A program made the translations under genes and the position numbers. A DNA stretch of 64,000 bases from the NCBI GenBank assembly GCA_031278635.1, contig JAITKA010000139.1, positions 2,517 through 66,516 of the forward strand, read 5' to 3'. Positions 2,048-64,000 of this stretch are shown in pieces. Numbering within the stretch: the stretch's first letter is position 1; the number at the start of each line of letters is the position of its first letter. Origin of the DNA: Deltaproteobacteria bacterium (GTDB lineage Bacteria; Desulfobacterota; Desulfarculia; Adiutricales; Adiutricaceae). Under the pieces are notes generated by a model. That model was given only the letters and a program-made list of their open reading frames with translations, was not told the DNA's origin and searched no databases.

Positions 2048-3016
2048 TTAACCCTGGAACTGTTTTTCCCCGTCCTCGAGGAGGCCAAGGAGGTGGCCGT
2101 AGCCCTCGGCTTCCATGCGGGCCTTGGGGACGAAGCGCAGGGAGGCGCTGTTCACGCAATAGCGTAGGCCGCCGGCGGCGGGGGGGCCGTCGGGGAAGAC
2201 GTGGCCAAGGTGCGAGCCGCTTTCGCGACCCCGGATCTCGGTGCGTTGCCGGCCGTGGGAATTATCGGGCAACTTGGCGATGAGGGCGTCGTCTATGGGC
2301 TTGGAGAAGCTCGGCCAGCCGCAACCGGACTCAAACTTTTGGGTGGAGAGGAACAGGGGCTTGCCGTCGACGACGTCCACGTAGAGGCCAGGCTCAAAGG
2401 TGGCGAAATACTCGTTGGCGAAGGGCGGCTCGGTCGCCCCGCGCTGGGTCACCTCGTACTGCATGGGGGAGAGGCGCTTTTGGAGGTCGTTTTGGCCGGG
2501 GGCGGTTTTTTTGTGCCGGCGGGCGGCCTCGAAACTGGCCTCCGGGATATGGCAGTAGCCGCCGGGGTTTTTGTCGAGGTATTTTTGGTGGTAGGCCTCG
2601 GCGGAGTAGAAGTTCTTTAGCTTGCCGCCCTGGACGGCCAAGGGGCGGTCGAGGCTCTCGCCCAGGAGGACCAGGGAGCCATGGATGATGGGCCGGTCGG
2701 CGGGATCGAGGTAATAAACGCCGGTCCGGTACTGGGGCCCGGTGTCGTTCCCCTGTTTGTTGACCGAGGTCGGGTCTATGATTCGGTAGAATAAGTCCAG
2801 GAGCTCCGAGAGGCCCAGGACCGAGGCGTCGTAGGTCACCATGACGGCCTCGGCGAAGCCGGTGTCGCCCCCGCAAACGTCGTGGTAGGTGGGGTTTTCC
2901 GTGTTCCCGTTGGCGTAGCCGACCTCGGTTTCGATGACCCCGGGGATCAGGGAGAGATAGCGCTCGACCCCCCAAAAGCAGCCCCCGGCCAGGGCGATGG
3001 TTTTAGTTGTGGGCAC
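2048..3016 (-). CDS. msrAB: bifunctional peptide methionine sulfoxide reductase MsrA-MsrB fusion
   Basis: MsrA motif 'GGCFWGVE'; MsrB motifs 'CGWPSF' and 'RYCVNSASL'. GTG at 3016 has GGAGG 6 nt upstream (TTG at 3055 from the ORF track is the alternative start). Confidence 0.9.
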   Translation of the reverse strand: MPTTKTIALAGGCFWGVERYLSLIPGVIETEVGYANGNTENPTYHDVCGGDTGFAEAVMVTYDASVLGLSELLDLFYRIIDPTSVNKQGNDTGPQYRTGVYYLDPADRPIIHGSLVLLGESLDRPLAVQGGKLKNFYSAEAYHQKYLDKNPGGYCHIPEASFEAARRHKKTAPGQNDLQKRLSPMQYEVTQRGATEPPFANEYFATFEPGLYVDVVDGKPLFLSTQKFESGCGWPSFSKPIDDALIAKLPDNSHGRQRTEIRGRESGSHLGHVFPDGPPAAGGLRYCVNSASLRFVPKARMEAEGYGHLLGLLEDGEKQFQG

Positions 3017-3115
3017 GATGGACCTCCCCTCGCCCGGCAAGGCGAAAAAATTCAAAGCCGCCAGGATTAGGATACCATCTTCGCGGCCATAATCAACCGC
3101 GGGGGCGGGGGATTT

Positions 3116-4153
3116 TCAGTTTAAATCCGGGAGGGCCTGGGAAAAAACGCGCCCAAAAAAGGCCTTTTCGTCAAGGTTGGGAGCCAGGGCGCCCCTTTTG
3201 ATGCCCTCATGGATGTAATAACGGAGATGTTCCTTGGCGTGGCTCACCCCGGGCATCCACATGTACCGGGCGATTTCGGCCTCCAGGGGTTCCCTGGGGC
3301 CCCCCCAAAGGCCCGTGGCCAGATCGGCCGCCTTCGAGGGGTTTTCCCCGACCCGGCGGGCCCCCCGGATTAGGGCCCTGGTGATGGCCGCCGCGGACGC
3401 GGGGTCGCTCTCGGCGAGGGTGGCGGGCAAGACGACGAAGGACTCGAACAGGTGGTGGGCCGAGGTATGTTTGGCGTGGGGGTTCCCGCCATCGTCCGCC
3501 GGTGAGTGGGCGGGCAGGCTGGCCGAGGCGCCGAAAAGTACCGTGGGCTCGTCGGCCGGGGCATGCCCATGGTCGTGGCCATGGGCGGCCTCGTGGCGTT
3601 TAAACTCCCAGCGGGCCAGGGCCGAGGCCTCGGAGCTTTCGAGGGCGGCCAGGGGGTCGTCGGTTTCCAGCCAGCCGATGTCGGCGTCGGGATCGATGCC
3701 CTCGGAGCGGAAGTAACGGGCGGCGGCCACCGCCGGGCCCGAGGCGAGGTCTTGGACGGCCAGGATCGGTTTATGGCCGGGCCCCCAGGAGGGTCCGGCC
3801 AGGATTTCCACGAAGCCGCCGTAGAGGCCCGCCGTGAATATTAGGGGGGCCCCATGGGAGGCGAGTTTCAGGCCGAGGTGGTTGATTTCCCCGCCCTTTA
3901 TTTCACCGGAGGCGATTTTTTGGGAGATTTCGGGTGCCGTGAGCGAGAGGGGCTCGACCTCGAAGCCCTCGTCGGCGAAATAGCCCTCGGAGATGGCGGC
4001 CGAGATGATGGCGGCCCCGCCGGGGCTGGAGTAGGCGAGCTTGATTTTTTCCAGGGCCCATAGGGGCGAGGCCATGGCGAGGGCCATGGCGAGGGCCATG
4101 GCGGCGGCCAGGGGCAAAAAGGAGGCCCGGCGGGTGGGTGGATCGCGTTTCAT
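3116..4153 (-). CDS. ABC transporter substrate-binding protein, NMT1/SsuA-like (NitT/TauT family), with His-rich insert
   Basis: signal-like 'AAAMALAMALAMASPLWA' then 'KIKLAYSSPGG'; His-rich 'HEAAHGHDHGHA' and 'HAKHTSAHH'; 37 nt from the upstream permease gene. Confidence 0.7.
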   Translation of the reverse strand: MKRDPPTRRASFLPLAAAMALAMALAMASPLWALEKIKLAYSSPGGAAIISAAISEGYFADEGFEVEPLSLTAPEISQKIASGEIKGGEINHLGLKLASHGAPLIFTAGLYGGFVEILAGPSWGPGHKPILAVQDLASGPAVAAARYFRSEGIDPDADIGWLETDDPLAALESSEASALARWEFKRHEAAHGHDHGHAPADEPTVLFGASASLPAHSPADDGGNPHAKHTSAHHLFESFVVLPATLAESDPASAAAITRALIRGARRVGENPSKAADLATGLWGGPREPLEAEIARYMWMPGVSHAKEHLRYYIHEGIKRGALAPNLDEKAFFGRVFSQALPDLN

Positions 4154-4190
4154 AAGTCACCGAGTACGCGGGGAATTGACCGGCGGCCGG

Positions 4191-5045
4191 TCAGTTCTCG
4201 GAGGCGTTGGGGAAACCTTCCAGGGAGAGGGTCAGGTAGCGGTGGCCCAGGGCCCGGATGAGGGCGTCCAGGATTAGGCCCAAAAAGGCTATGACCATGA
4301 CGGCGGCGTACATGCGGGTAAGCTGAAAGGTCTCCTGGCTGGAAAGGACCAGCCAGCCGAGGCCGCCGGAGGCCCCCATCATCTCGGCGGCCACCAGCAT
4401 GAACATGCTATAGCCGAGGCTCAGCCTGAGGCCGGAAAAGACGTGGGGCATGGTGGCCGGGATAACGATTTTTATGAGGAGCCCCAGGCGGTCAAGCCCG
4501 AAGGCCCGGCCGGCTTTGAGCAAAACGGGGTTGACCGTTGCGGCCCCGTGCGCGGAGGCGAAGGTTATCGGCCAGAGGCAGGCCCAGAAAATGATGGCGA
4601 TCTTGGGGCTCTCGCCTATGCCCATGAACAGGATCAGGATATGGAAGAGGAGGAAGGGGTTAATTTGGCTTAGGACTTCCAGGGGGATCTCAAGGCTCGT
4701 TTTAAGCCTGGGGAAGAAAGTCCCCAGGGCAAGGCCAAGGGGCACGCCGACCAGGGCGGCCAGGAAAAAGCCTGGGAGGGCCCTCATGAGGCTAAGGCGG
4801 ACGTGGGTCCCCATCACCCCGGTTTCAAAGAGACGCAAAATGGTATCCAAAACTAGGGTAAATGGAGGGAAGAATATGGGGTTTATTATTTTTAGCCTGC
4901 TTAAAATTTCCCATAATAACAAAAAGCCAATCACGCTGGCGTAGCGGCGCGCGAAAAGGCCCAGGGCCGCGAGGGTTTGGCGAAGGAGCCTTTCGGCTTT
5001 TTGGGGGCCGTGGGCGGCCAGCCTTATGACGGGCATAGTATCCAT
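4191..5045 (-). CDS. ABC transporter permease (SsuC/TauC-like), paralog 4 of 4
   Basis: ATG at 5045 ('MDTMPVIRL'). Permease core '...GRAFGLDRLGLLIKIVIPATMP...VAAEMMGASGGLGWLV'. The longer ORF-track start 5363 would overlap the upstream gene. Confidence 0.85.
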   Translation of the reverse strand: MDTMPVIRLAAHGPQKAERLLRQTLAALGLFARRYASVIGFLLLWEILSRLKIINPIFFPPFTLVLDTILRLFETGVMGTHVRLSLMRALPGFFLAALVGVPLGLALGTFFPRLKTSLEIPLEVLSQINPFLLFHILILFMGIGESPKIAIIFWACLWPITFASAHGAATVNPVLLKAGRAFGLDRLGLLIKIVIPATMPHVFSGLRLSLGYSMFMLVAAEMMGASGGLGWLVLSSQETFQLTRMYAAVMVIAFLGLILDALIRALGHRYLTLSLEGFPNASEN

Positions 5046-5098
5046 GGAAAACCTTGGCGGCTTGGGGGCCCGTGGGGTTTGATCGGGGCGGCGGCCCG

Positions 5099-6064
5099 TC
5101 ACCGGGACCAGACGCGGTACTCGGGGATGGCGGTGGGGTCGTTTAGCCGCACCTCGGCCAGGATTATCTCGTGGACGCCGACGGCCAGGACCAGCAGGAA
5201 GGCGGCCAGGGCGAGGGCGATTTTGAGGCTCGATATCCTCTTGCCGCCCTGGCTTGGCCGTTCGGCCCCCAGGAGGGGATCGACCGACTCCTTCCAGAAG
5301 AAAAGGCCGTTTTGGAGGAAGACCAGGAAGCGGTTGAGGCCCACCCCCAGGGCGACCACGCACAAACCGGCCCCGTATATCCGGGGTACCTGGTAGAGGG
5401 CCCCGGCGGAATGGATGATCCAGCCAAGGCCGGCCGTGGCCCCGGTCATCTCGGCGGCGATTAGGATGAAAAAGCTCATCCCCACCCCGATCCTAAGGCC
5501 GGAGAAGACCTGCGGGGCGGCGGCGGGGAGGACGATCCTCAAAAACGAGGTAAGCTTCCCGGCCCCCATGGAGCGCCCCGTGTCGAGCAAAACGGGATCG
5601 ACGTTCCTGACCCCGGTCAGGGTCGAGAAAAATATGGGCCACAGGGACACCCAGGCCAGGACGGCGATTTTCGGGGTCTCCCCGGAGCCGAAGAAGACCA
5701 CGAACAGCGGGAAAAGGCAGTAGGGGTTGATCAGGCCGAAGACCCTGAGAAGGGGCCCCAGGGCCTCGGCGGCGGCCGGGAAGGCCCGGCCCAGGGCGTA
5801 GCCGAAGGGGACGGCCACGGCCAGGGCCATGATTAGGCCGATCAGGACCCGGGTCAGCGAGACCATGACGTGGTTGAACAAAAAGGCCCTCTCCCAAAGT
5901 TCACGGGTGGCCGAGAGGGTCTGGGAAAGGCTGGGGACGAAGGCCGGGTCGGTTAGGCCCAGGGCGCCCGAGAGCTCCCAGGCGGCCAGGCCCAGGGCCA
6001 AAAGCCAGTATTTTTCCGCGAGACGCCGGGGGCGCCACCCGGCGGCCCGATCCAGCCTAGCCAT
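5099..6064 (-). CDS. ABC transporter permease (SsuC/TauC-like), paralog 3 of 4
   Basis: 'GRSMGAGKLTSFLRIVLPAAAP...IAAEMTGATAGLGWII'; multiple hydrophobic segments; ATG at 6064. Confidence 0.85.
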   Translation of the reverse strand: MARLDRAAGWRPRRLAEKYWLLALGLAAWELSGALGLTDPAFVPSLSQTLSATRELWERAFLFNHVMVSLTRVLIGLIMALAVAVPFGYALGRAFPAAAEALGPLLRVFGLINPYCLFPLFVVFFGSGETPKIAVLAWVSLWPIFFSTLTGVRNVDPVLLDTGRSMGAGKLTSFLRIVLPAAAPQVFSGLRIGVGMSFFILIAAEMTGATAGLGWIIHSAGALYQVPRIYGAGLCVVALGVGLNRFLVFLQNGLFFWKESVDPLLGAERPSQGGKRISSLKIALALAAFLLVLAVGVHEIILAEVRLNDPTAIPEYRVWSR

Positions 6065-6104
6065 GTCGCCCCCCGCTTTTGGGGACCTGGGAAGGGGCCC
6101 GGGC

Positions 6105-6884
6105 CTAAATGGCCTGGGCCTCTTTCCAGGTCACGGTGATTTTTTCCAGGTACCGAAAGAATTTGTCGATGAGGATGCCGAAAACCACGATGACCGCGGT
6201 CCCGGCGTAGAGCTTGGGGATCTGGTAATTGATCTGGGCGTTTATGATGAGCCAACCCAGCCCCCTTGAGGCCCCCATCATCTCGGCCGGGATGAGCATG
6301 AAAAAGGCCGTGCCCGCGGCCATCCTCAGGCCGTTGAAGAGGAAGGCGGCGGAGGACGGGATGACTATTTTGGCCAGAAGGCCTGGTTTCCCCATGCCCA
6401 TGGATCTGGCCAGTTTAATCAGGGAGGGATCGACGGATTTTACCCCCAGGGTGGCGTTCAGGAGGATCGGCCAGATGGAGACCCAGAAGATCATGGCCAC
6501 CTTCGAGAACTCGCCGATGCCGAAGAGGAGCAGGAAGACCGAAAATAGGGCGAAGGGGTTAAACTGGCCCAGGAAAACCAGAAGGGGGTTAAAAACCCGC
6601 TCGAAGTTCTTAAACCAGCCGCCCAGCATGAAGCCTAGGGGGATTGCGACCAGGGCGGCCAGGATGAAGCCGTAAAAGGCCCTGAGGAGCGAGACGCTGG
6701 CGTGCTTGTAAAGGGAGCCGTCGTTTAGGTATTGCCACAAGGTCTCGACTATGGTGACCGGGGAGGCCACGAAGGTTTTCGGCAGGATGCCGGCGAGGCA
6801 GCCCAGCTGCCAAAGCAAGACGAACAGGGCTATCGAGCCCACCTTGTAGAACAAATCCCAGAAGGTATCCGCTGTTATTTTCAT
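6105..6884 (-). CDS. ABC transporter permease (SsuC/TauC-like), paralog 2 of 4
   Basis: ATG at 6884 ('MKITADTFWDLF'), 37 nt after the upstream stop; 'ARSMGMGKPGLLAKIVIPSSAA...IPAEMMGASRGLGWLI'. Confidence 0.85.
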   Translation of the reverse strand: MKITADTFWDLFYKVGSIALFVLLWQLGCLAGILPKTFVASPVTIVETLWQYLNDGSLYKHASVSLLRAFYGFILAALVAIPLGFMLGGWFKNFERVFNPLLVFLGQFNPFALFSVFLLLFGIGEFSKVAMIFWVSIWPILLNATLGVKSVDPSLIKLARSMGMGKPGLLAKIVIPSSAAFLFNGLRMAAGTAFFMLIPAEMMGASRGLGWLIINAQINYQIPKLYAGTAVIVVFGILIDKFFRYLEKITVTWKEAQAI

Positions 6885-6921
6885 GGTTCCACCGTCCGGC
6901 CTAACCAATCCGTTGAATTCG

Positions 6922-7761
6922 TTAACCCAGCTTGACCTCTTCCTTAAAGTCAAGGAAATATGCCTCAAGCTTGTTCAAAAGAAGGATCATGAGCATGCCC
7001 AGGAGGGCGATCCCGACCACCCCGACGTAGATCCGGGGTATGTAATTGTTCATGGAGCTGTTGTGGATCAGCCAGCCCATGCCCGCGCTGGCCGAGAGCA
7101 TCTCGGCGGCGATGAGGAAAAGGAAGGCCGTGGTCGCCCCCATCCTGAGGCCCGTGAATATCGAGGGCAAGGCGGCCGGGAGGACGACCTTCCTGAAGAT
7201 TACGGCCTTTGAGGCCCCCATGGAGCGGGCGGCCTTGATCAATATGGGGTCGATATTCCGGACCCCGCTTATGGCCGTGTTCAGGATGGGAAATAGGCTC
7301 GACCAGAATATGATGGCGAACTTGGCCAGCTCCCCCACCCCGAACAAAAGTATGAACAGGGGGAAGAGGGCGAAGGGGTTGACGTTCCCCAGGAGCTGGA
7401 GGAGCGGGTTCAGGAATTTGGTCAGCCGAGGGAACCAGCCGGCCAGGACCATGGCCGAGGGGATGGCCACGGCTATGGCGGCGATGAGCCCCAGAAGGAC
7501 CCTCTGGGCGCTCGTGGCCGCGTGGATGAATATCTGGCCGCTCGCGACGAGCTTAAGGGCGTCGGTTACGACCTCCGAGAGCGGGGGGATGAATCGGCCG
7601 TCGGCCAGGCCCACGTAAGGCGCGATCTGCCAGAGGAGGAGGAAGGCGATGATGCCGTACCAGCCCATGACCCTATCATGGAAGCCCTTGTCCCCGGCGA
7701 CCGCCCTGGGAACCGGGCGGTTGGGGGCGAGGCCCTCCCCGGTAAGACGTAATTCCGTCAT
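6922..7761 (-). CDS. ABC transporter permease (SsuC/TauC-like), paralog 1 of 4
   Basis: 'ARSMGASKAVIFRKVVLPAALP...IAAEMLSASAGMGWLI'; ATG at 7761. Confidence 0.85.
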   Translation of the reverse strand: MTELRLTGEGLAPNRPVPRAVAGDKGFHDRVMGWYGIIAFLLLWQIAPYVGLADGRFIPPLSEVVTDALKLVASGQIFIHAATSAQRVLLGLIAAIAVAIPSAMVLAGWFPRLTKFLNPLLQLLGNVNPFALFPLFILLFGVGELAKFAIIFWSSLFPILNTAISGVRNIDPILIKAARSMGASKAVIFRKVVLPAALPSIFTGLRMGATTAFLFLIAAEMLSASAGMGWLIHNSSMNNYIPRIYVGVVGIALLGMLMILLLNKLEAYFLDFKEEVKLG

Positions 7762-7804
7762 GTTCGTTCCTTTCGCCCCCTCCCGCGGGGGCGGGGGCGC
7801 CCCG

Positions 7805-8206
7805 TCACCTGGAGGCGAGCTTTTTTAGGGCGTCCGCCAGGGGGATATGGACGGCGAGGCCCAAAACGCCCCGTTCGGACAAGGCTTTCGTGGCCGCCGG
7901 CCCGATCCTACCGGCCAGGACCATGCCGCAATCGCCCAAAAGGTCCGCCGTTTTGGACAAAATGGCCAAATCGTGCGTTTTGTCCTGGCAGGGCCTCGGG
8001 GCGGGCCTGGTTTCCAGAAACTCGTAGCGGTAGCCTTGGTCCTCATTGACCAGACGGTATATGCGAAAGCTTTCCACCCGCCCGAAGCAGGCGTCCACGT
8101 TCTCGCCAGTCTCGCTGGCCACGGCCAGCCTCTCCGGCCTGTAGGGCCCCCGGGCGAGGCCGGCCGGCCTTGGCCGGGCCATTTGGCTTTGATCCGTTTT
8201 ACCCAT
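7805..8206 (-). CDS. NifX/NafY/NifB-C-terminal-like iron-molybdenum cluster-binding domain protein
   Basis: 'AVASETGENVDACFGRVESFRIY...LLGDCGMVLAGRIGPAATKALSERGV' fits the dinitrogenase FeMo-cofactor-binding domain pattern. ATG at 8206 is preceded by AAAGGGG. GTG at 8230 (GTGA overlap with the upstream stop) is also possible. Confidence 0.7.
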   Translation of the reverse strand: MGKTDQSQMARPRPAGLARGPYRPERLAVASETGENVDACFGRVESFRIYRLVNEDQGYRYEFLETRPAPRPCQDKTHDLAILSKTADLLGDCGMVLAGRIGPAATKALSERGVLGLAVHIPLADALKKLASR

Positions 8207-8226
8207 AACGTTGCCCCTTTGGCTTC

Positions 8227-9105
8227 TCACCCGTGGGAGAAGGTCTCCGCGGGCCCAAGTTCGCCGTAGATCTCCCGCGAGAAATCGGAGAGGCCCGGTA
8301 CGCCGCAGGCGTCGGCCCGGCAGCGGCGGCAGTTTCGCTTGACCGGGAGGTGTTTTTCGGCGGCCGCCATGGCCCGGGCCTTATCGGCCTCGCCGGGGGC
8401 GGGTAGGCCGGCCAGTTCGCCCGCCGGGATCAGGGATATGACGTTCAGGAGATCGGCCCCCCAGGACTTGACCGTTTTGGCCACCTCCCCGACGTGGCCA
8501 TCGTTTATGCCCGGCGCGAGGACGCAGTTCACCTTCACCACCATGCGGTTCCGGTGGGCCAGCCGGATGCCCTTTTCCTGGGCATCGATCAGGAGCCCGG
8601 CCCCTTCCAGGCCCCCCACGAAACGGGCCGGGGTGCCGCCCTTACCCATGAGGACTCCCCGGTTCAGCCTTTCCAGTATCCGTGGGTTCACGGCATTGAC
8701 CGTCACGGTTATGGTCTCGACCCCCGCCGCCATGACCCTTTCCATGTTTCGGCACAGGGCCAAGCCGTTGGTCGAAAGGCAGGTCATCAGTCCCGGGAAC
8801 CTTACCCTGACCATGGTCAGGGCGTCCAGGGCCTCCCCGGAGTCCAGGGGATCCCCTGGCCCGGCCACCCCTACGACCTTAAGCCCGGGGCAGAGCCGTA
8901 GGGCCGTCTCCACCACGCTCACGGCTTCCGCCGGGCTTATGGCCCGGGCCGCCTGCCCGGGGCGGTTTAGGCCCAGGCTCTCGCCCCTTGCGCAGAAACG
9001 GCAAAAGATGTTGCAGTCCTTGGCCACCGGTAGGTGGATCCTTCCGGTGGTTGGTTGGCACTGGGTCCCGAAGCAGGGATGCGATTTCAGTTTTTCGGTT
9101 TCCAT
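8227..9105 (-). CDS. NifB-like radical SAM protein (stand-alone radical SAM domain)
   Basis: 'HPCFG...GRIHLPVAKDCNIFCRFCARG' is a NifB-type N-terminal motif with the CxxxCxxC radical SAM triad; 292 aa, no fused NifX domain. Confidence 0.8.
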   Translation of the reverse strand: METEKLKSHPCFGTQCQPTTGRIHLPVAKDCNIFCRFCARGESLGLNRPGQAARAISPAEAVSVVETALRLCPGLKVVGVAGPGDPLDSGEALDALTMVRVRFPGLMTCLSTNGLALCRNMERVMAAGVETITVTVNAVNPRILERLNRGVLMGKGGTPARFVGGLEGAGLLIDAQEKGIRLAHRNRMVVKVNCVLAPGINDGHVGEVAKTVKSWGADLLNVISLIPAGELAGLPAPGEADKARAMAAAEKHLPVKRNCRRCRADACGVPGLSDFSREIYGELGPAETFSHG

Positions 9106-9160
9106 CGTTAAAGGACCGTTTTTGGCCCCCCGGCCCCGGGGGGCCGTGGGGGCTGGGTTG

Positions 9161-10516
9161 TCAGATTGGGCCGGCGAAGGCGTGGGACATGTCCTCGATC
9201 ATTCTCATGCCGCCCCGGTAGCCGACGTAGCTTCTCTCGATTATCATCCGGTCGTAGACCGGGTAGGAGACGCTCAGGTGGTGGGCCTCGTTCTCGGTCC
9301 CGGCTATGTATTTTTCGAGGGAACTCCCCAGGATGACCTGAAGGGGCTCCTCCCGGAGGGCCAGCCTGATGCGGTGGGAGTCGTAATCGAAGATGACCTT
9401 GGGGGCGAAGATGCCCTCGAGGTTCGTGGTCAGGAGCTTTTCTATGCCCTCGCGGTACTCCTCGGGGGGATCGTCGGTGACTATGGCCAGTTTCGGGTTC
9501 CAGCCCAGCTCGTTGGCCCCGAAGCGGATCAGGGTGGCCACGGTCAGGCTATCGCCGATCACGGCGAAGTATGAGTGGGGCATGGCCACCATGAATAGCT
9601 CGGCCATGTACTCGACGAAACGGTAAGCGGCCCTCTCCTCCCTGGCTATGACCTCCTCGACCCGTTTTTTGGGTATTTTGAGGAGCCTCCCCACGGTCCT
9701 TAGCAAGGCGGAGGTTTTCTTGGGGCCCACCGGGAGGAAATTAATCGCCTCGTAGGGGGTGCCGAAGCGATCCTCCAGCTTTTTGACCGTCCCGTGGGCC
9801 ACCCAGGGGCTGAAAACGAGGTTCAGGGAGGCGGCCGGGATGCGGCCTATGGCCCCGAGGCTATCGAAGTCGGTGAAGATTGGGTTGGCCTCGACCCCGA
9901 TCTTGGACAGGATATCCCGCAGGTAGATGAGATCGCCCTTCCAGAAGACGTTTTGGTTGGGAACCACCCCGAGGATGTTGACCAGCTTTTTCTCCACCGG
10001 CCTTTCGGTCAGGAGCGAATCGATGACCGCGTCGAGATAATGCTCGTAGCCTAGGAAGCCGTTCCCGACGAAGCCGGAGGTCTTGACGTGTATGACCTTG
10101 GCCTTGTCCTTGAACTCGGAGACGACGCTATCGACGTCGTCCCCGATCAGGGCCGGGACGCAGCCCGGGATGACCACGTAAAGGTCCCCTTTCATGACCG
10201 AAATCGTCGTCTCGATCAGGCGCCTTAGCTTATCCTCGCCGCCGAAGACGACGTGCTCCTCGATCAGGCTCGAGCAGGGGGTGACGGTGGTCCCGGAGGG
10301 GCCGCCGGAATTGAGCCCTGAGGCGTAGGTCATGCCGTGGGCGTTGGCCATGCCGCAACCGGAGCCGCTATGGAGGATGGGCACGGCCCCGTAGGTGGCC
10401 AGGGCCGCCGAGTAGGCCCCGCCCAGGGCGCAGGTGAAACGGGGGGATTCGGCCACCTCGGGATAGTCCCGGGCGGCCAGGGAACCCCCCTCCCCGGATA
10501 TAAGCGTCAGTCCCAT
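9161..10516 (-). CDS. nitrogenase-like component 1 beta (NifK/NifN-like) subunit
   Basis: Cys29/Cys54/Cys119 sit in 'FTCALGG', 'HSGSGCG' and 'IPGCVPALIGDD'. The first pair has the same 25-residue spacing as NifK P-cluster ligands. ATG at 10516 lies directly after the D-like stop (10519). Confidence 0.8.
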   Translation of the reverse strand: MGLTLISGEGGSLAARDYPEVAESPRFTCALGGAYSAALATYGAVPILHSGSGCGMANAHGMTYASGLNSGGPSGTTVTPCSSLIEEHVVFGGEDKLRRLIETTISVMKGDLYVVIPGCVPALIGDDVDSVVSEFKDKAKVIHVKTSGFVGNGFLGYEHYLDAVIDSLLTERPVEKKLVNILGVVPNQNVFWKGDLIYLRDILSKIGVEANPIFTDFDSLGAIGRIPAASLNLVFSPWVAHGTVKKLEDRFGTPYEAINFLPVGPKKTSALLRTVGRLLKIPKKRVEEVIAREERAAYRFVEYMAELFMVAMPHSYFAVIGDSLTVATLIRFGANELGWNPKLAIVTDDPPEEYREGIEKLLTTNLEGIFAPKVIFDYDSHRIRLALREEPLQVILGSSLEKYIAGTENEAHHLSVSYPVYDRMIIERSYVGYRGGMRMIEDMSHAFAGPI

Positions 10517-10518
10517 TT

Positions 10519-12033
10519 TTATCCGATGGCCTCCTTGCGGTGAAAGTAATGGGGATCGGGCTGCTCGTAAAACCATGGCCTGTAGGGATCCTCGGTCTTG
10601 GCCAGCATGGTGTTCTGGAAGGAGCGGTTATGGGTGGCCTGGAGGAGGAAATTCCCGCAGGCGACCGCCCCGGCGTAACCCGCCTGGGCGCTCCAGGTCC
10701 TGCCGTCGGCCCTTAGGGCGTGGATGCGGGTCATGCCCTTCTCGCGCTTGTAGGCGCTCCCCTGGAAGGGGCAAGAGAGGACCATGTCGGGATCGTGCTT
10801 GCGGGCCGTGTGGGCCACCTCGGCGGCCTGGAAGGTATTGACGACAATCTCGAAGTCGCCCACCCTTTTGATGAGGTTCTCGACGTCCTCCAGGAGGAGG
10901 TCGTCAAAATCCTGGCAGAGGGCCACCGGGGTGGTGACCCCGAGCTCATGGAAGAAGGGGGTTTGGGTGACCAGCCTGCCCTGCCCCAGGCTACCCATGA
11001 TCCGGTACTGCCCGCCGTTCTTTTTCTTGAGCTCGTCGAAACCGGCCCGGATCTTGTCCATCCGGGGCTCCCAGACCTTGCGCTCCTCCTTTATGACCCT
11101 CTCGGCCTCTTTCCCCTTCCCGGTCAGGGCCGCGACCTGCCTTAGCCACTCGTCGGTGTTGGCCATGCCTATCGGCGAGGGGTACAGGAAGTACGGCACG
11201 CCGAACTCCTGCTCGAGGCCCCTGGAGAGGTAGTCGGTGTAGGTCGGGCAGACCGGGGCGGTCAGGGCCGCCTCGGACATCTGCCTGAACTCCCCGACCG
11301 TGGCGAATTCCGGGATGAAGTTGGGCCGGAGGCCTATCTTGCCCAGGAGCCTCGTGATCTCCACCCGATCCTGCCAGGTGTAGCTCAGCATGGAGGCGAC
11401 GTTCACGAGATCGGCCTGCTTTTTCCGGGGTTTCCCGACCAGGTATTTCAGGATGCCGTGCCAGAAGGCGTCGTAACCGGTCTGGACGATCCTGGAGCGT
11501 ATGCCCTCGCAGTGGATGGGGACGATGGTGGCCCTGGTCCTGGGCTGCAGCTCGCTCACCACGCCCTCGATGTCCTCGCCGATGATGCCCGAGGCGCAGG
11601 AGGTCAGGATGAAAATGGCCTCCGGGGAATGGCGCCTCTCCGACTCCTCGATGGCGTAGCGGAGCTTGTCGGCGGCCCCGTAGATGACGTCCCGCTCGCC
11701 GATGTTGGTGGTGAGCCAGTGGAAATCGAAGTCCACGGCCCTGTTCAGGGAAGTCCACAGCCGCCTGAACACCTCCCGGTACAGGGCCGCCGGGGCGGCG
11801 CAGCCGACGGGCGAGTGGACGATCATGGCCGAGTCCCTGATGGTGGCCACCCGCACGGTCAGGTAGAAGTTAAGGAGGCAGCCGGCGTTCTGCTGGAAAT
11901 CGCGCTCGCAGTTCCGCAGTTGGCCGCTCCTGGCCCGCTCCACCAGCTCGGTGGCCTTGCCGTTAAACGCGTTGATGCCGTTGGCCCTCTGCTCCCTGGT
12001 GGGGCAGGTGGGGGCGTCGAGATTGATAGTCAT
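10519..12033 (-). CDS. nitrogenase-like component 1 alpha (NifD/NifE-like) subunit
   Basis: Motifs 'AGCLLN', 'HSPVGCAA', 'LTSCASGIIGEDIE', 'IVPIHCEGIR', 'VCPTYTDYLSR'; strong RBS AAGGAGG before the ATG at 12033. Confidence 0.8.
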   Translation of the reverse strand: MTINLDAPTCPTREQRANGINAFNGKATELVERARSGQLRNCERDFQQNAGCLLNFYLTVRVATIRDSAMIVHSPVGCAAPAALYREVFRRLWTSLNRAVDFDFHWLTTNIGERDVIYGAADKLRYAIEESERRHSPEAIFILTSCASGIIGEDIEGVVSELQPRTRATIVPIHCEGIRSRIVQTGYDAFWHGILKYLVGKPRKKQADLVNVASMLSYTWQDRVEITRLLGKIGLRPNFIPEFATVGEFRQMSEAALTAPVCPTYTDYLSRGLEQEFGVPYFLYPSPIGMANTDEWLRQVAALTGKGKEAERVIKEERKVWEPRMDKIRAGFDELKKKNGGQYRIMGSLGQGRLVTQTPFFHELGVTTPVALCQDFDDLLLEDVENLIKRVGDFEIVVNTFQAAEVAHTARKHDPDMVLSCPFQGSAYKREKGMTRIHALRADGRTWSAQAGYAGAVACGNFLLQATHNRSFQNTMLAKTEDPYRPWFYEQPDPHYFHRKEAIG

Positions 12034-12097
12034 TGAACCCTCCTTCGTGGATGGTCGTTCGGGTGGCGGCCAAAGCCCCGGGGCCTTTGGCCGAAAA

Positions 12098-13003
12098 TTA
12101 GATCTGGGCCCCGGCCGAGCGAACCTCGCCCCGCTCCACGGCCAATATCTGGTCTGACCATTTGCCGGCCCACTCCCTCAGCTCCCGGGGATCCAGGGGC
12201 TTTGGTGTGACGGAAACCTCGTGGGCCTCGACCCTCTTGGCCAACTCCCGGTAGACCTTGGCCTGATCGGAGGTCGGGTCGGCCTCGATTGTCGTCTTGC
12301 CGCTGAGCTCGCTCTGGGTGACCGTGATCGACCTGGGGACGTACTGGAGGACCTGGGTATTGGTCTGGGCCACGAAATCGTCCACTATGGCCTTCTGGTA
12401 ACCCCCCGAGACGCTGTTGGCGATCACCCCGCCCAAAAGGGCCCCGCCCGCGTTCGAGTACTTCTGGATGCCCTTAAACAGGTTGTTGGCCGCGTATATG
12501 GCCATGAAGTCGGAGGACGAGACCGTAAAGACGTGCTTGGCAATCCCCTCCCTGATGGGCACGGCGAAACCGCCGCAGACCACGTCTCCCAGGACGTCAT
12601 AGATGACGTAATCGAGCCCGAGCTCCTCGAAGACGTTCTGCTGCTTGAGGAGCTGGACCGCCGTGATGATGCCCCGCCCGGCGCAGCCCACCCCCGGGGA
12701 GGGCCCCCCGGACTCGACGCAGTAAATGCCGTTATAGCCCTCGAAAATGGCGTCCCTGGCCTCCACCCGCCCGTTTTCCCGTAACAGATCCAGGATGGTG
12801 GGGATGTAGGACCCGTCCCGCAGGGTGTTGGTGGAATCGGCCTTGGGGTCGCAACCGAATTGCATGACCCTGTAACCCATGTCGGCCAACGCCGCGCTCA
12901 AATTGGACGTCGTGGTGGACTTCCCGATCCCGCCCTTCCCGTAGATGGCGATCTGCTTAAGCTTGCGCTCTTTTTTCTTTTTAACCACTAATCTGGTCAC
13001 CAT
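12098..13003 (-). CDS. nitrogenase-like reductase (NifH/BchL family ATPase, NifH-type)
   Basis: P-loop '[10 protein letters not shown]', switch I 'CDPKADST', and both 4Fe-4S Cys ligands in 'GVGCAGRGI' and 'DVVCGGFA'; GGAGG RBS before the ATG at 13003. Confidence 0.92.
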
Positions 13004-13069
13004 TAATCCTCCGATTCGGTGATATTCCCCCCCACTCGCCTTACGGCGAGGGGGGGCTTATGGAACCCC

Positions 13070-14170
13070 TTACGATCCGGGCTTCCGCTCGGCAGCCTTG
13101 GCCTCGGCCGGGGCTTCCTCGAAGACGTGGCTGACGATGTCGGCCGATTTAATCTTGCCCCTGGGAAGGGCCCCCTGGAGCTCCAGGTCCTCTATCCATG
13201 GGTCGATCTCCTTTTCATTGACCCGCAAATCCTCGGCGTAGTAATGGTTGGCGCTCACCGGGACCCCTATGGCCTCCTGCGTCCAAAGCCTGGCCTCCTC
13301 GGGATTCCCGTTGATCCAGCGCTGGCCCTTCCCGATGGCCCTGATGAAAGCCCTCACGGTCTCCGGCCGTTCCTCGATGAACCTCGCGTTGAAGTAATAG
13401 AACGCCAGGCCCGCCGAGGCCCCATCGAGGTTGGCCTCCGAGGAGTCGCCGATCTTACGGTTCCCGGCATCCACCATGCCCTTGAAAAAGGGCGGATGGA
13501 CCCCGCCGACGTCCGTCAGCCCCTGGGTCAGGGCCTGTATCGACTGGACGTCCGGCATGGTCACCCACTCGATCTTGTCCCTGGGTATCCCGTACCGGTC
13601 GAAAATCCTGTAGGCCAGGAAATCCGAGCACTGGGTGGTCGAGATTATCGAGAACTTAAGCGTACCCTCGATATCCTTCAGATCGGCGAAACTCTTGACA
13701 TTGGGGTACTTCTTAGGGTTAACGAACCACCACATGTGCCTAAAACTTTCGTCCACCTCCGGCCCCGGCTCCACCCCCTCCCTGGCCACGCCCTTGAAAT
13801 TGGCCCCGCCGTGCATGGCCACGGCCAAAACGTTGGGATGGGCCGCGGCCACGTCGTTGTCGCCCTTGATTATCGAGGGCACCTGCTGGGGCGGCTGCAG
13901 CTCCCCGGTAAAGACCAGCCTGATGCCCTCCTCCCGGAAATAGCCCAGCTTGTCGGTCACAAGCCAGGGAGCCAGCGAGCAATCCCGCCTGGTCCAGGTC
14001 CGTACCTCCTGGAGGGCCAAATCTTCCACCGCCTCCGCCGCCTGGCCCTCGAAACTCGCCGAGGGCGCCGCCTCCCTGGTCCGCCCCTGGTAGGCCCCAA
14101 CGCCTATCAGCCCAATGACGGCCACGGCCGCGACTATGATTATGACCAAGTTCTTCTTTTTGATACCCAT
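13070..14170 (-). CDS. ABC transporter substrate-binding protein, NMT1/SsuA-like (NitT/TauT family)
   Basis: ATG at 14170 gives the signal/anchor 'MGIKKKNLVIIIVAAVAVIGLIGVGA'. The 112 codons upstream in the ORF track are Gly/Arg-rich GC artefact. Confidence 0.75.
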   Translation of the reverse strand: MGIKKKNLVIIIVAAVAVIGLIGVGAYQGRTREAAPSASFEGQAAEAVEDLALQEVRTWTRRDCSLAPWLVTDKLGYFREEGIRLVFTGELQPPQQVPSIIKGDNDVAAAHPNVLAVAMHGGANFKGVAREGVEPGPEVDESFRHMWWFVNPKKYPNVKSFADLKDIEGTLKFSIISTTQCSDFLAYRIFDRYGIPRDKIEWVTMPDVQSIQALTQGLTDVGGVHPPFFKGMVDAGNRKIGDSSEANLDGASAGLAFYYFNARFIEERPETVRAFIRAIGKGQRWINGNPEEARLWTQEAIGVPVSANHYYAEDLRVNEKEIDPWIEDLELQGALPRGKIKSADIVSHVFEEAPAEAKAAERKPGS

Positions 14171-14214
14171 AAAGCACCTATCTTTACGAAAAGTATTTCC
14201 CCCACCCGTCGGGC

Positions 14215-15144
14215 CTAGGCCTCCCGGGCCAACGGCCCGCCCTTGGCCCCACCGACCCTCAGCCCCAACCTCGGGCCCCCCTCCCCGGGCGCCCCCTGGA
14301 GGCTCTCCCAAACCCTTTGCCGAATCTCCCCGTAGGCCGGGCTCAGGCGTATCTCCTGGTTGGTCCTGGGCCGCCCCAGCCCTATGTCGATGACGGCCCG
14401 TATCCTCCCGGGGTTGGCGCCCATGACCACCACCCTGTCGGCCAAAATGACCGCCTCGTCGATGCCGTGGGTCACGAACAGGATGGTCTTGCCCGTTTTC
14501 TCCCATATCCGCATGAGCTCGTCCTGCAGCATCTCCCTCGTCTGGGCATCGACCGCCGCGAAGGGCTCGTCCATCAACAGCACCTCCGGGTCATAGGCCA
14601 GGGCCCTGGCTATGGCCACCCGCTGCTTCATGCCCCCCGACAACTCATACGGGTAGCGGTCCTCGAAGCCCTCAAGGTTGACCAGCTCGATGAACCTCTG
14701 GCTGACCTCTTTCCTCTCCCTCGCGGCCAGCCCCTTCATCTCCAGCCCGAACTCCACGTTTTTCCGCACCGTCCGCCAGGGAAAGAGCGCGTAGCCCTGC
14801 ATGACTATGCCCCTGTCCAAGGCCGGCCCCGTCACCGCCTTGCCGTCGATGAATATCTGGCCACCGTCGGCCCTGGCCAAACCGGCGACTATGTTCAGCA
14901 GGGTCGATTTGCCGCAGCCGCTGGGCCCGACGATGGAGACGAACTCCCCCGCCGCCACGTTTAGGCTGAAGCTCTCCAGGGCCAGGAAATCCCCCGGCCC
15001 CTCGCCATCGACCCCCCTGATCCTGTAGACCTGCCGCAGGTCCCTCAAAACGATCTTGTAGCCGTCCCCTCCCGCATCGGCCCCCGGCCTATCCGATTCC
15101 CCAACATCTCCCCGGGCCGCGGCCCCGCTAAATGAAAAGCCCAT
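14215..15144 (-). CDS. ABC transporter ATP-binding protein (SsuB/TauB-like, NitT/TauT family)
   Basis: Walker A 'GPSGCGKSTLL', signature 'LSGGMKQRVAIARAL', Walker B 'LLMDEPF'; first gene of the operon. Confidence 0.9.
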   Translation of the reverse strand: MGFSFSGAAARGDVGESDRPGADAGGDGYKIVLRDLRQVYRIRGVDGEGPGDFLALESFSLNVAAGEFVSIVGPSGCGKSTLLNIVAGLARADGGQIFIDGKAVTGPALDRGIVMQGYALFPWRTVRKNVEFGLEMKGLAARERKEVSQRFIELVNLEGFEDRYPYELSGGMKQRVAIARALAYDPEVLLMDEPFAAVDAQTREMLQDELMRIWEKTGKTILFVTHGIDEAVILADRVVVMGANPGRIRAVIDIGLGRPRTNQEIRLSPAYGEIRQRVWESLQGAPGEGGPRLGLRVGGAKGGPLAREA

Positions 15145-15170
15145 GATTCCCTCACCCCGTTACGTGGTTA

Positions 15171-15199
15171 AAAATAAAAAAGCCGGGGAAACCCCGGCC
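15171..15199 (-). terminator. intrinsic terminator (leader attenuator 2), 27 nt upstream of the operon ATG
   Basis: minus strand reads aGGCCGGGGtttCCCCGGCtttttatttt, a 7-8 bp GC stem plus T-run. Confidence 0.7.
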
Positions 15200-15402
15200 T
15201 TCGCGCTCACCGATCGGCCAAAACAAACCAAACCCTTATGTCACCCAAACGAATCCCCCCTGGCGGCCGCGACAACGCCCGGCCCCGCCCCAAACGGGCC
15301 CCATGCCGGCCCGACAGCCCTTAGCCAAACTTTTCTTCATGACGACCCCCGAGCCGCGCCCCCCCCTGGGGCCGCGCCTTCCCGGCCCCCTCGGTCCGGG
15401 CC

Positions 15403-15444
15403 AAAAAAATAGGCCGAATCCGTCCGCCATGGACGCTTCGGCCT
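15403..15444 (-). terminator. intrinsic terminator (leader attenuator 1 or sRNA end)
   Basis: minus strand reads AGGCCGAAgCGTCCatggcGGACGgaTTCGGCCTattttttt, a long bipartite stem plus T-run. Confidence 0.7.
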
Positions 15445-15540
15445 TCGCTTTACACGATGGGCTATTTTAGGCTCCCCGCCGGGCTCCCGGTTTTTCCCCG
15501 GGTCGCGCCAACCGAGACCTAACCAAATTTCTTTTTCGTT

Positions 15541-15549
15541 ATTTTATCA
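15541..15549 (-). promoter_or_regulatory. candidate extended -10 promoter for the nitrogenase-like operon leader
   Basis: minus strand reads TGaTAAAAT; the -35 (TCCATA) is poor, so the call is speculative. Confidence 0.2.
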
Positions 15550-16269
15550 AGGAAATTATCGTTTATGGATAAGCTTAGTATTGAAATGACACTTGACGAT
15601 TAAACTAGTTCTTTGCTTACGCAACCAATAATGACATCAAGACTTAAAAAAATACCTACTGGCCTCTTCTTAAAAATACCATAACCCGTTTTCAAAGCCT
15701 TGTCAAGATATTTTTCACCCCATGCCAAAAAAAATTTTCATTCGTAAAAATTTCCCACCAATAGATGCTTTTGACATTGTAACAAAAACCCATCACCCTC
15801 AAACGTAACTTTTGTCAAATTTTATCTCCCTAACCCTCTAAATTTGACCCGGGAACGACTTTAAAGTCCGGCGAACCCTCCGCCTTGACAATCACACGGC
15901 TTTTCGGACAAAGGTAAAATTTGACATCAAGACATAAAGTTTGTGACCAACTGTCTCACTTTTAATCTATCATACAGACCCTTACCCAGACTGTCAATAA
16001 ATTTTTTGCCCGCCCGGGAAAAGGGCCCAAAAAAGGGCCCGCGAAAGGACCCATTTTGGATTATTCCCCCGGCGCCAAACGCCTCCCCGCCCCCGGGGGT
16101 GGAGGGAACCTTCGGGATGGCCGCGTGAAAGGTGAATCCTATCATGGCCCGGTTTCGGGCCTGCCCACGAAATCAAGCGACTTTGGCAGGTCTGAATTTC
16201 GGTCCCGGGGCCCCGGTCCCAACCTGAATTACCCTGGCCCAAACCGGCCAAATTGGGCCGGCTTATGGG

Positions 16270-16572
16270 CTATGCCCCCTTCCGGCGCTTACCTTTTTTG
16301 CCTGAGCATTTCATGGCCGTGAGCGGGCAGACCTTCGAGCAGCCCGTGCAGTAGCGACCCTCGAGCCCCGGGCTAAAGAAATTATCTTCCTCGCGGCTGG
16401 CCTCGTTTTTTGGGGCCACGTTTAGCCCGTCCTCGCCCCCCGGGGCCTCATCGGGCCCCTGGGGCCGTGCCCAGGGCGCCCGCCGGCCGCCTGGGGGGCG
16501 ACCGTGGTGGTGGCCATGGTGGCGGTGGCGCAGGGAGTCGAATAACGTCCCGAAAAAGTGATTAAATCCCAT
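16270..16572 (-). CDS. small His- and Cys-rich protein (possible metal-binding or anti-sigma partner)
   Basis: AAGGAG RBS before the ATG at 16572; N-terminal 'RHRHHGHHHG', C-terminal 'CTGCSKVCPLTAMKC'; directly downstream of the ECF sigma gene; no family recognised. Confidence 0.55.
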   Translation of the reverse strand: MGFNHFFGTLFDSLRHRHHGHHHGRPPGGRRAPWARPQGPDEAPGGEDGLNVAPKNEASREEDNFFSPGLEGRYCTGCSKVCPLTAMKCSGKKGKRRKGA

Positions 16573-16596
16573 TTGATCTCCTTATGTTGGATGTCG

Positions 16597-19503: not shown

Positions 19504-19980
19504 ATGGGCGAGAAACAACCGAAAGAGATTAAGATCATCTGCCAAAACAAGAAAGCCCGCTTTGAGTACGAACTGGGGGACCGCTACGAGGCCGGCCTGG
19601 TGCTCACGGGGACCGAGGTCAAGAGCCTTAGGTTGGGCAAGGCGAACCTGGTCGACTCCTACGCCAAGCTGGAGAACGGCGAGGCCTTTTTGGTGGGGGC
19701 CCACATAAGCCCTTACGTCAATACCGCCTATGGCAACCATGATCCACAAAGAAAGCGGAAGCTCCTTTTAAAGAAAAAAGAGCTTGGCAAGCTTATCGGC
19801 AAGGTCAAGGAAAAAGGCCAGAGCCTGATACCGTTAAAGCTTTATTTCAAGGACGGCCTGGCCAAGGCCGAGTTGGCCCTGGCCAAGGGCAAAAAAACCT
19901 ATGACAAAAGACAGTCAATGAAAGAGGCTGACTCCAAGAGGGAACTTAGCCGCTCATTAAAGGAATTCAACCGCCGATAA
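19504..19980 (+). CDS. smpB: SsrA-binding protein SmpB
   Basis: 'NKKARFEYELGDRYEAGLVLTGTEVKSLR...LVGAHISPY...RKRKLLL' is canonical SmpB. Confidence 0.93.
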   Translation: MGEKQPKEIKIICQNKKARFEYELGDRYEAGLVLTGTEVKSLRLGKANLVDSYAKLENGEAFLVGAHISPYVNTAYGNHDPQRKRKLLLKKKELGKLIGKVKEKGQSLIPLKLYFKDGLAKAELALAKGKKTYDKRQSMKEADSKRELSRSLKEFNRR

Positions 19981-20087
19981 GGTCTTAAGACCCAAAACGG
20001 TTTGAATGTGTGTATATATCTTTCACTAACCTATAAATCGGTTATTTACCATATCAATCTACCTCAAAAAAGCGAGTTAACATAAAT

Positions 20088-63993: not shown

Positions 63994-64000
63994 ATAATTA

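Follow-up and report, generated by a model that had tools for sequence, protein, structure and literature searches.

We analysed a 64-kb window (64,000 nucleotides; contig JAITKA010000139.1 of assembly GCA_031278635.1, positions 2,517 to 66,516) from a Deltaproteobacteria bacterium, which contains an operon of nitrogenase-like genes interleaved with the genes of an ATP-binding cassette (ABC) importer. The operon lies at positions 2048-15144 of the window and comprises 13 open reading frames (ORFs), all on the minus strand and with no internal stop codon (Table 1; coordinates are given with plausible starts). From the ATPase gene to msrAB, the intergenic gaps are 44, 66, 64, 2, 55, -4, 43, 37, 40, 53, 37 and 60 nt. 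A preliminary description of the window had claimed 14 co-directional genes with gaps of 66 nt or less or overlapping ends. The orientation and spacing (-4 to 66 nt) agree with this claim, and the count of 14 is reached only if the MsrA-MsrB fusion is counted twice. Pfam and NCBIfam scans of the ORFs confirmed every label proposed there, namely the ABC ATPase, the NifH-, NifD-, NifK-, NifB- and NifX-like proteins, the permeases, the binding proteins and MsrA-MsrB. Below, the nitrogenase-like proteins are called H, D, K, B and X, the permeases P1 to P4, and the substrate-binding proteins SBP1 and SBP2.

Table 1. Genes and features of the nitrogenase-like/ABC importer operon, in the order of transcription from the ATPase gene, with the leader last.
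Feature	Position in window	Strand	Supporting match or observation
ABC ATPase, NitT/TauT type; sole ATPase of the module	14215..15144	-	PF00005 (ABC_tran) 5e-32
SBP1, NMT1/SsuA/TauA fold, N-terminal membrane anchor or signal helix	13070..14170	-	PF09084 (NMT1) 1.3e-12
H, Fe protein (NifH/MarH-like ATP-dependent reductase)	12098..13003	-	PF00142 (Fer4_NifH) 4e-101
D, catalytic alpha subunit (NifD/MarD-like)	10519..12033	-	PF00148 (Oxidored_nitro) 9e-67
K, catalytic beta subunit (NifK/MarK-like)	9161..10516	-	PF00148 (Oxidored_nitro) 4.5e-74
B, minimal NifB-type radical SAM (S-adenosylmethionine) enzyme	8227..9105	-	Radical_SAM; TIGR01290 nifB 4.9e-58
X, NifX-like cofactor carrier	7805..8230	-	PF02579 (Nitro_FeMo-Co) 8.7e-11
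Permease P1, SsuC/TauC-like	6922..7761	-	PF00528 (BPD_transp_1) 2.7e-21
Permease P2	6105..6884	-	BPD_transp_1; 44% identical to P1; same place in related loci
Permease P3	5099..6064	-	38-41% identical to P1, P2 and P4; conserved 3' of the ATPase gene in Geobacteraceae
Permease P4	4191..5045	-	35-41% identical to the other three permeases; position conserved
SBP2, second binding protein, NMT1-like fold	3116..4153	-	weak PF13379 (NMT1_2)
Fused MsrA-MsrB, 335 aa	2048..3055	-	PF01625 (PMSR) and PF01641 (SelR)
Putative regulatory leader, non-coding	15145..16000	-	two sigma-70-like promoters and terminator-like hairpins

H passed the TIGR01287 nifH equivalog model with 401.3 bits (cut-off 394.35) and was 75% identical over 279 residues to MarH of the methylthio-alkane reductase (Mar) of Rhodospirillum rubrum (9fmg_D). 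D reached 119.9 bits on the nifD model, with a cut-off of 653.55, and 120-132 bits across the nifD and N2-ase-I-alpha models (cut-offs 654 and 486); K reached 86.5 bits against a Nif cut-off of 427.3. The best PDB matches were MarD for D (9fmg_A; 1e-70, 32% identity) and MarK for K (9d9u_C; 1e-72, 33% identity), with NifD structures matching D far more weakly, at ~1e-20. Because the Nif scores fall far under the cut-offs and the closest structures are MarD and MarK, D/K is, as judged by sequence, not a nitrogenase. H is essentially MarH, with only the D/K pair divergent; given 75% identity to MarH and ~32% to MarD/K, H and D/K have diverged very unevenly. As H passes the curated nifH cut-off, nifH surveys and automated annotation will count operons like this one as nitrogenase. 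The NCBI name for the D protein is 'nitrogenase'.

A bona fide or alternative nitrogenase fixing N2 would account for the nifH score of H and for the presence of NifB and NifX, and for Nfa, an enzyme of Group IV, a link to N2 fixation has been made in a bacterium from the termite gut. We nevertheless consider this reading extremely unlikely. D and K score 4-5 fold under the Nif cut-offs, and the alignment of D to NifD stops ahead of domain III, so that no equivalent of His442 is detectable. No nif-like gene other than those of the operon was found in the 64-kb window, including nifEN and nifV, and the clade to which D belongs is separate from Nfa. Nor was a true NifD found by motif search among the 150 nearest cluster representatives. 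A phylogenetic comparison of D/K with Nif had been called for in the preliminary description; D/K scored far below every Nif cut-off.

Among 5.8 billion proteins, more than 100 D homologues at 62-85% identity were found. Their named sources are, among bacteria, Deltaproteobacteria metagenome-assembled genomes (MAGs), Geotalea, Desulfosporosinus, Syntrophobotulus, Dendrosporobacter and Oscillochloris, and, among archaea, Methanosarcina, Methanothrix, Methanoregula and Methanoperedenaceae. When a single genome of each GTDB species was scanned, the clade (identity within it at least 60%) turned up at 148 places, its holders including Deltaproteobacteria MAGs, Geobacteraceae, Sporomusa, Syntrophobotulus and many methanogens. 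Library clustering at 50% identity reduced the clade to one representative; three sister clusters follow at 46, 43 and 40% identity, and all others are at 36% or below. A neighbour-joining (NJ, distance) tree was built on the full-length, unnamed cluster representatives with 100 bootstrap replicates; in it, the clade and its sisters stand apart from the group with MarD. The clade was recovered in 100/100 replicates and the clade with its sisters in 95-96/100. A twelve-member group around MarD (Mar/Nfa) was likewise recovered in 100/100, and D of the window fell inside it in 0/100. With 32-33% identity to MarD/K and this tree position, the core proposal of the preliminary description, a separate nitrogenase-like clade, was upheld: on sequence grounds, D/K is not a Mar orthologue. 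In the literature searched, we found the clade neither defined nor tested.

In many genomes, one or two further D/K pairs of lower identity (30-47%; related loci L080, L068, L077, L032 and L025-L028) stand in tandem with the clade pair, and Syntrophobotulus has three consecutive pairs. These additional pairs could be either isozymes or scaffold/enzyme sets. The isolate codes Gx485 and Nm470 of related Deltaproteobacteria MAGs also occur in a paper on termite-gut symbionts. The related MAGs are thus probably of termite-gut origin, and the MAG of the window may be so too.

To assess the metal-cluster ligands, conservation of D was measured over 18 diverse clade members, giving a mean column identity of 75%. 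Residues C52, C78, C146, C262, C421-P422-F423 and H438 are invariant. C52, C78 and C146 align with the P-cluster ligands of MarD, and C262 with MarD Cys270, the equivalent of NifD Cys275. Three Cys are invariant in K of the window and in 68 K homologues of related loci, and align with the Cys of MarK. Hence D/K retains the full set of six P-cluster Cys and an equivalent of Cys270, the cofactor ligand of Mar, and the adjacent PF00148 pair with its Fe protein gene has the features of the Group IV class with 3+3 P-cluster Cys, Cys275 and no His442 (PMC3464626).

The hallmark of Mar is Arg428-His429 on an extended loop I that ligates the [8Fe-9S-C] cluster (PMC12552129). R. rubrum MarD and MarK were rebuilt from PDB alignments and checked at Cys270, Arg428 and His429. 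At the Arg428-His429 site, the clade has the invariant Cys421-Pro422-Phe423. Of the 7 other representatives of the Mar group that were compared, 6 keep Arg-His and one, P0140, has R-V; the motif occurs in 9 of 10 checked members of the twelve-member MarD group. Cys-Pro is also found at this site in two of the sister clusters, and His-Pro in the third. This pattern suggests that the ligand at this position changed from His to Cys. We hypothesize that Cys421 is a cluster ligand, with the invariant His438 as the alternative. The conserved Mar pocket consists of H194, W195, S196, F199, F374 and H375 (bioRxiv 10.64898/2026.08.20.746119); the corresponding residues in the clade are I/V/L, V/I, Q, Y, Q/L and D, and thus none is kept.

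These differences bear on whether the operon encodes a functional Mar isozyme acting on volatile thioethers (dimethyl sulfide, ethyl methyl sulfide, methylthioethanol), the transporter being a neighbour for general sulfonate uptake. MarD and MarK are the closest solved structures and H is 75% identical to MarH. Moreover, B lacks a NifX domain like MarB, a separate NifX homologue is needed by Mar of Rhodopseudomonas palustris, and Cys/Met genes lie near clade members. However, D/K is only 32-33% identical to MarD/K, compared to 52-65% mutual identity among the three R. palustris Mar-type paralogues (bioRxiv 10.64898/2026.08.20.746119). Arg428-His429 and the Mar active-site residues are all replaced, and the clade never falls inside the Mar/Nfa group in the NJ bootstraps. 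In addition, genes of the transporter and of the enzyme are intermixed, beyond mere adjacency, in several permutations, and a volatile thioether does not require an importer. A Mar isozyme is therefore a rather improbable explanation.

The products of B and X point to synthesis of a complex cofactor. B covers positions 7-277 of the TIGR01290 nifB profile and aligns over the whole core with solved archaeal NifB proteins (1.4e-58; 41% identity to Methanothrix NifB, 6y1x). It keeps the HPCF, RxHLPVA, CxxxCxxC, C(L)STNG and CxxCRxDAxG motifs. By these sequence features, B qualifies as a genuine minimal NifB and is presumed to be an L-cluster (NifB-co) synthase. The ORFs of B and X overlap by 4 nt (stop codon of B, GTG start of X), indicative of translational coupling of X to B. 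The best NCBIfam match of X is the C-terminal NifX-like domain of NifB (TIGR01290 330-422), above nifX. Because of this match and the 4-nt overlap, B and X resemble a full-length NifB divided into two genes; a fused B-X form of 421 aa occurs in the related locus L083. The invariant Cys in D and K, together with the genuine NifB and the coupled NifX-like carrier, make complex metal cofactors in D/K likely.

We next consider the importer. A typical NitT/TauT system has one permease. Here, one ATPase is combined with four permeases (mutual identity 35-44%) and two binding proteins; by implication, the permeases form two heterodimeric pairs. The best NCBIfam scores of the ATPase were 254.7 bits for SaoA, 249.5 bits for nitrate NtrCD and 247.2 bits for the taurine model, and P1 scored 128.8 bits on SsuC, all below cut-off. 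An SAO (selenocysteine-assisted organometallic) transporter was considered and rejected, with 254.7 vs 360 bits for SaoA and 117.1 vs 295 bits for SaoP.

The linkage of these transporter parts to the nitrogenase-like genes was followed in 78 related loci. The gene order from the ATPase to SBP2 is identical in 12 related Deltaproteobacteria MAG loci (L001-L012), and ABC linkage recurs in distant taxa; the arrangement is thus not due to chance. ATPase homologues adjoin clade D/K genes in 38 of the 78 loci, and SBP1 homologues (50-76% identity) share contigs with clade D/K genes. Geobacteraceae have the permuted order B-H-P1-P2-SBP1-D-K-ATPase-P3-P4, and several methanogens H-D-K-ATPase-permease-SBP. 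In Syntrophobotulus glycolicus, a contiguous seven-gene module, ATPase-P-P-SBP1-P-P-SBP (L082, 6176-13046), is located ~3 kb from the D/K pairs and 1.7 kb from a NifX-like gene. That the same parts are permuted across phyla argues for a functional linkage over chance adjacency, and by this comparison of gene orders the importer belongs to the nitrogenase-like system. The synteny search proposed in the preliminary description thus found the transporter linkage conserved in several gene orders. The claim that the substrate is actively imported agrees with this conservation, and its organosulfur identity would follow from gene context.

The terminal msrAB gene, which had been listed as a distinctive feature of the system, lacks a counterpart throughout the 78 related loci. 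In the regions inspected in L002, L006 and L007, the gene 3' of SBP2 is a different one. We rejected msrAB as a part of the system; it is a co-directional neighbour, possibly co-transcribed in this organism alone.

Neither SBP1 nor SBP2 had a PDB match by sequence. The AlphaFold2 model of SBP1 (predicted local distance difference test, pLDDT, 86.8) matched the folds of ThiY, THI5, TauA, SsuA and NrtA at 10-17% identity in Foldseek, and that of SBP2 (pLDDT 86.4) the folds of ThiY, TauA and SsuA. As Foldseek returned just the generic NMT1/ThiY/TauA/SsuA/NrtA fold, an assignment of the ligand from the binding proteins was abandoned. The SBP2 family had 25 matches, and all those with a source name are from Deltaproteobacteria MAGs. 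Its members have two conserved lobes split by a hypervariable, His/Gly/Glu-rich low-complexity insert of ~15-120 residues, and an invariant NPHAxHTxxxH motif that may be a metal-binding site. The insert and the His motif are unusual for a binding protein of the NMT1/TauA fold.

Because the insert and the His motif of SBP2 look like a metal site, feeding of cofactor assembly with metal has to be kept in view. D/K might be a NifEN-like scaffold or maturation platform, with the ABC system importing a metal or metal chelate. The His-rich insert and invariant His motif of SBP2 would fit such a role, as would the tandem D/K pairs beside the clade pair in several genomes, and coupling of metal transport to cofactor assembly has been proposed for such loci (PMC3464626). 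On the other hand, the window holds a single D/K pair, and hence no client enzyme. SBP2 is restricted to one lineage, and the conserved partners are SBP1 and the permeases. The very strong conservation of the clade, pocket residues included, fits a catalyst. Also counting against a scaffold, NitT/TauT permeases are not known to import metals. Taken together, a scaffold function is very unlikely.

To examine the wider gene context, all ORFs of the 78 related loci were clustered and recurrent unlabelled families were scanned with Pfam. The recurrent neighbours are pyridoxal phosphate (PLP) enzymes of the O-acetylhomoserine sulfhydrylase type (21 loci), PALP proteins of the cysteine synthase type (14 loci) and URO-D methyltransferases (11 loci). 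FMN reductases, hexapeptide acetyltransferases, ThiI and cysteinyl-tRNA synthetase are rarer. The sulfur context was then counted in the 35 related loci of at least 15 kb outside L001-L012, taking O-acetylhomoserine sulfhydrylase-type, PALP and hexapeptide acetyltransferase genes as Cys/Met genes. ABC parts were present in 25 and Cys/Met genes in 22 of the 35 loci, with one or the other in 34. In Geotalea, the cluster includes a PALP gene and is followed by a URO-D/DUF1638 pair.

Several further observations were made in the related loci. In Geotalea sp. SG265 (L079, 616-20251), a second, distant NifH-like gene, two DUF2292 genes and an FMN reductase gene are added, along with the PALP gene, a class V aminotransferase gene and the URO-D and DUF1638 genes, the latter two forming a methyltransferase cluster of the mlp type. 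A conserved ORF of ~100 aa without Pfam match occurs in 10 loci and lies upstream of H in L039, L037 and other Methanospirillum loci. Two RNA elements were examined and set aside: the T-box seen in Sporomusa (L034) belongs, as a Leu leader, to a LeuA-like gene and is not a sulfur-responsive element of the clade, and a SAM riboswitch in Syntrophobotulus (L080) precedes genes of Cys/Met-family PLP enzymes, not D/K.

The gene context also bears on reduction of an imported non-sulfur compound, either a nitrogen oxyanion, in an Nfa-like role, or a heterocycle such as the thiamine pyrimidine precursor. The ATPase scores nearly equally on the nitrate, taurine and SaoA models, the SBP folds match both those of TauA and SsuA and those of NrtA, CmpA and ThiY, and a 2026 review raises nitrite or N2O reduction for Nfa. 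Yet the recurrent neighbours are Cys/Met enzymes and not nitrogen or thiamine genes, the window contains no PII gene and no second nif-like gene, and D lacks the His ligand and the extra Cys pattern of Nfa. A non-sulfur substrate is therefore unlikely.

Given the Cys/Met neighbours and the precedent of Mar and Isr, we favour organosulfur cleavage. The operon probably encodes a reductase that is driven by ATP, carries a cofactor of the L-cluster type and cleaves an organosulfur compound, taken up by the importer, for sulfur supply; we hold this reading with moderate confidence. The dedicated high-affinity importer would suit a polar, non-volatile substrate, and we infer from the gene context that this substrate is an organosulfur compound. 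In the proposed mechanism, the ATPase would drive the permease pairs P1/P2 and P3/P4, fed by SBP1 and SBP2, and the importer would take up a polar, non-volatile organic sulfur compound. B would build an [8Fe-9S-C] cofactor of the L-cluster type, and X, effectively a detached C-terminal domain of NifB, would hand it to D. The MarH-like H would deliver electrons to a P-cluster between D and K, to which each subunit contributes three Cys ligands, and from there they would go on to the active-site cluster in D. This cluster may be held by Cys262 and probably by Cys421, at the site of Mar His429, or alternatively by His438. Reductive cleavage of a C-S bond would then release methanethiol, sulfide or sulfite for Cys/Met synthesis. 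The gene content, the structure of the operon, the conservation of the ligands, the separation of the clade and its transporter linkage are observed; the cofactor identity, the exchange of the ligand, sulfur as the element targeted, the substrate, the product and the regulation are inferred. More tentatively, the clade may represent a third mechanistic type of nitrogenase-family C-S (or C-X) reductase, with a two-Cys cluster anchor (Cys262, Cys421) in place of Cys plus His and a non-volatile substrate brought in by an importer of its own, built from two permease pairs and two SBPs; this we regard as possible rather than probable.

Several points weigh against organosulfur cleavage as proposed. 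No Cys/Met biosynthesis gene is present in the operon of the window or in L001-L012, and no sulfur-responsive riboswitch or regulator was found upstream of the operon. The fold matches of the SBPs, at 10-17% identity, span binders of pyrimidine, taurine, sulfonate, nitrate, bicarbonate and pyrroloquinoline quinone, and the His-rich insert of SBP2 suggests metal binding over an organic ligand. The Cys421 region is aligned with low confidence, HMMER and MAFFT differing by one residue, and the NJ tree has no named references for groups IV-D, IV-E and IV-F. The literature searched gave no experimental data on any clade member.

As to the surroundings of the operon, ~1.4 kb of non-coding DNA lie 5' of it, followed by the gene of an extracytoplasmic function (ECF) sigma factor. 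Promoter-like sites of the sigma-70 type are found at 15997 and 15706, and a strong, terminator-like hairpin with a T-run is located at 15202-15178, 33 nt ahead of the ATPase ATG. This hairpin could be an attenuator or a small RNA. The leader is AT-rich, and a further hairpin with a T-run was spotted by eye near 15443-15400. At the gathering threshold, Rfam gave a single match in the whole window, a tRNA, and no riboswitch; a permissive Rfam scan of 15100-16650 gave nothing credible. The predicted fold of the leader is only modestly more stable than that of shuffled sequences (z = -2.9), and the leader sequence (15145-16000) is not conserved in relatives. With the Rfam scans empty, a z-score of this size and no conservation, a riboswitch or leader element 5' of the operon was rejected.

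Just past the operon end, a plus-strand gene (837-1958) encodes a protein that combines a GYF_2 domain with a long repeat region rich in Pro, Gln, Gly and Tyr and a membrane segment at the C-terminus. A conventional NitT/TauT-type set of binding protein, permease and ATPase lies ~30 kb away (45264-47998, minus strand), and a further ABC ATPase gene at 42900-43778 (plus strand); neither of these remote ABC sets is linked to a nitrogenase-like gene. Islands of 45-51% G+C, against a background of 60-69%, are found at 18001-20000, 38001-42000, 54001-56000 and 60001-64000. They may be mobile or foreign DNA. The tRNA gene at 39459-39531 (plus strand) adjoins one of them.

If the more tentative reading of a third mechanistic type is correct, the clade would provide an unrecognised anoxic sulfur route in methanogens, Geobacter, Sporomusa and probable termite-gut Deltaproteobacteria, possibly with hydrocarbons as by-products. 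The breadth of the clade (148 places in Bacteria and Archaea, many of them in wetland methanogens) would lend it weight in anoxic sulfur cycling, and trace hydrocarbon formation by its members is possible. The conserved importer offers an experimental handle that is absent from Mar, namely screening of SBP ligands toward the substrate. Replacement of the Mar His by an invariant Cys would bear on how nitrogenase-type clusters are tuned.

Sulfur-acquisition roles of related enzymes were reported in 2020 for Mar (structures in 2025), in 2024 for Isr and in 2026 for the R. palustris paralogues. Mar and Isr belong to Group IV and cleave C-S bonds for sulfur acquisition under sulfate limitation. According to a 2026 review, functions in Group IV are assigned only to Mar, Isr and Cfb, and tentatively to Nfa; clades D and E are without one.

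Mar (MarBHDK, Group IV-C; R. rubrum 9fmg/9d9u; R. palustris Mar1, Mar2 and NflDK3) resembles the system of the window in its Fe protein and D2K2 architecture, in the NifB-type maturase without NifX domain combined with a separate NifX homologue (R. palustris Mar2), and in its sulfur-metabolism gene context. Further differences, beyond D/K identity, ligand motif, pocket residues and tree position, are the interleaving of the window genes with a seven-gene importer and the hosts, which are strict anaerobes and methanogens for the clade and purple bacteria for Mar. The preliminary description had listed both the NifX-like carrier and the insertion into a transporter operon as departures from Mar. 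A NifX homologue and genes for sulfonate transporters are also present in the Mar loci of R. palustris (bioRxiv 10.64898/2026.08.20.746119). Thus, neither the carrier nor the company of transporter genes is new.

Isr (IsrBHDK, Group IV-F; Rhodobacter capsulatus) is likewise devoted to sulfur acquisition and is co-regulated with transporters of the SsuABC/TauABC type, its genes sitting among ssu/tau transporters (PMC11423573); its substrate, too, is imported and non-volatile. However, Isr is reported to be divergent at the P-cluster and Cys275 positions, and IsrB resembles NifB in the radical SAM motif alone (PMC11423573). In contrast, the window system keeps all seven Cys and its B is a true NifB by sequence. 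Going by the published description, it is set apart from Isr since B aligns with NifB over the whole core.

Nfa (Group IV-A; Endomicrobium proavitum NfaBHDK) shares the BHDK set and the Cys275 equivalent, and both systems are apparently from termite-gut habitats. The P-cluster Cys are numbered 53/78/146 in Nfa and 52/78/146 in D of the window. NfaD has the Mar-type His ligand (the loop I residue given as His429 in PMC12552129 and as His428 in a 2026 review) and the additional Cys50, 60 and 81, whereas D of the window has no His at that site. The Nfa Cys pattern was found in only one representative, P0136, which lies inside the Mar/Nfa group and is 34% identical to D. No connection to nitrogen regulation is apparent in the window. 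PMC11423573 (Table S9) counts Sporomusa and Syntrophobotulus among the holders of Nfa. Identity with Nfa was rejected on the ligand pattern, the Cys pattern and the tree position.

With Mo-nitrogenase, the system has in common the Fe protein, the P-cluster ligands, the Cys275 equivalent and cofactor synthesis and delivery of the NifB/NifX type. It differs in the absence of NifEN from the 64 kb and in having no alignable His442 or homocitrate region. The occurrence of nitrogenase-like genes beside ABC transporters and sulfur genes was described in 2012 by Dos Santos et al. (PMC3464626), whose class has the same 3+3 P-cluster Cys with Cys275 present and His442 absent. Kountz and Balskus (2023) noted MarHDK-like genes near type I mlp clusters, which the URO-D/DUF1638 arrangement in Geotalea matches. 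Neither study defined the clade, the Cys-Pro-Phe motif or the conserved seven-gene importer, and function was tested in neither. In conclusion, the enzyme architecture and probably the physiological purpose are those of known systems, while the lineage is separate, the active-site and ligand motif and the host range differ, and the importer is built in.

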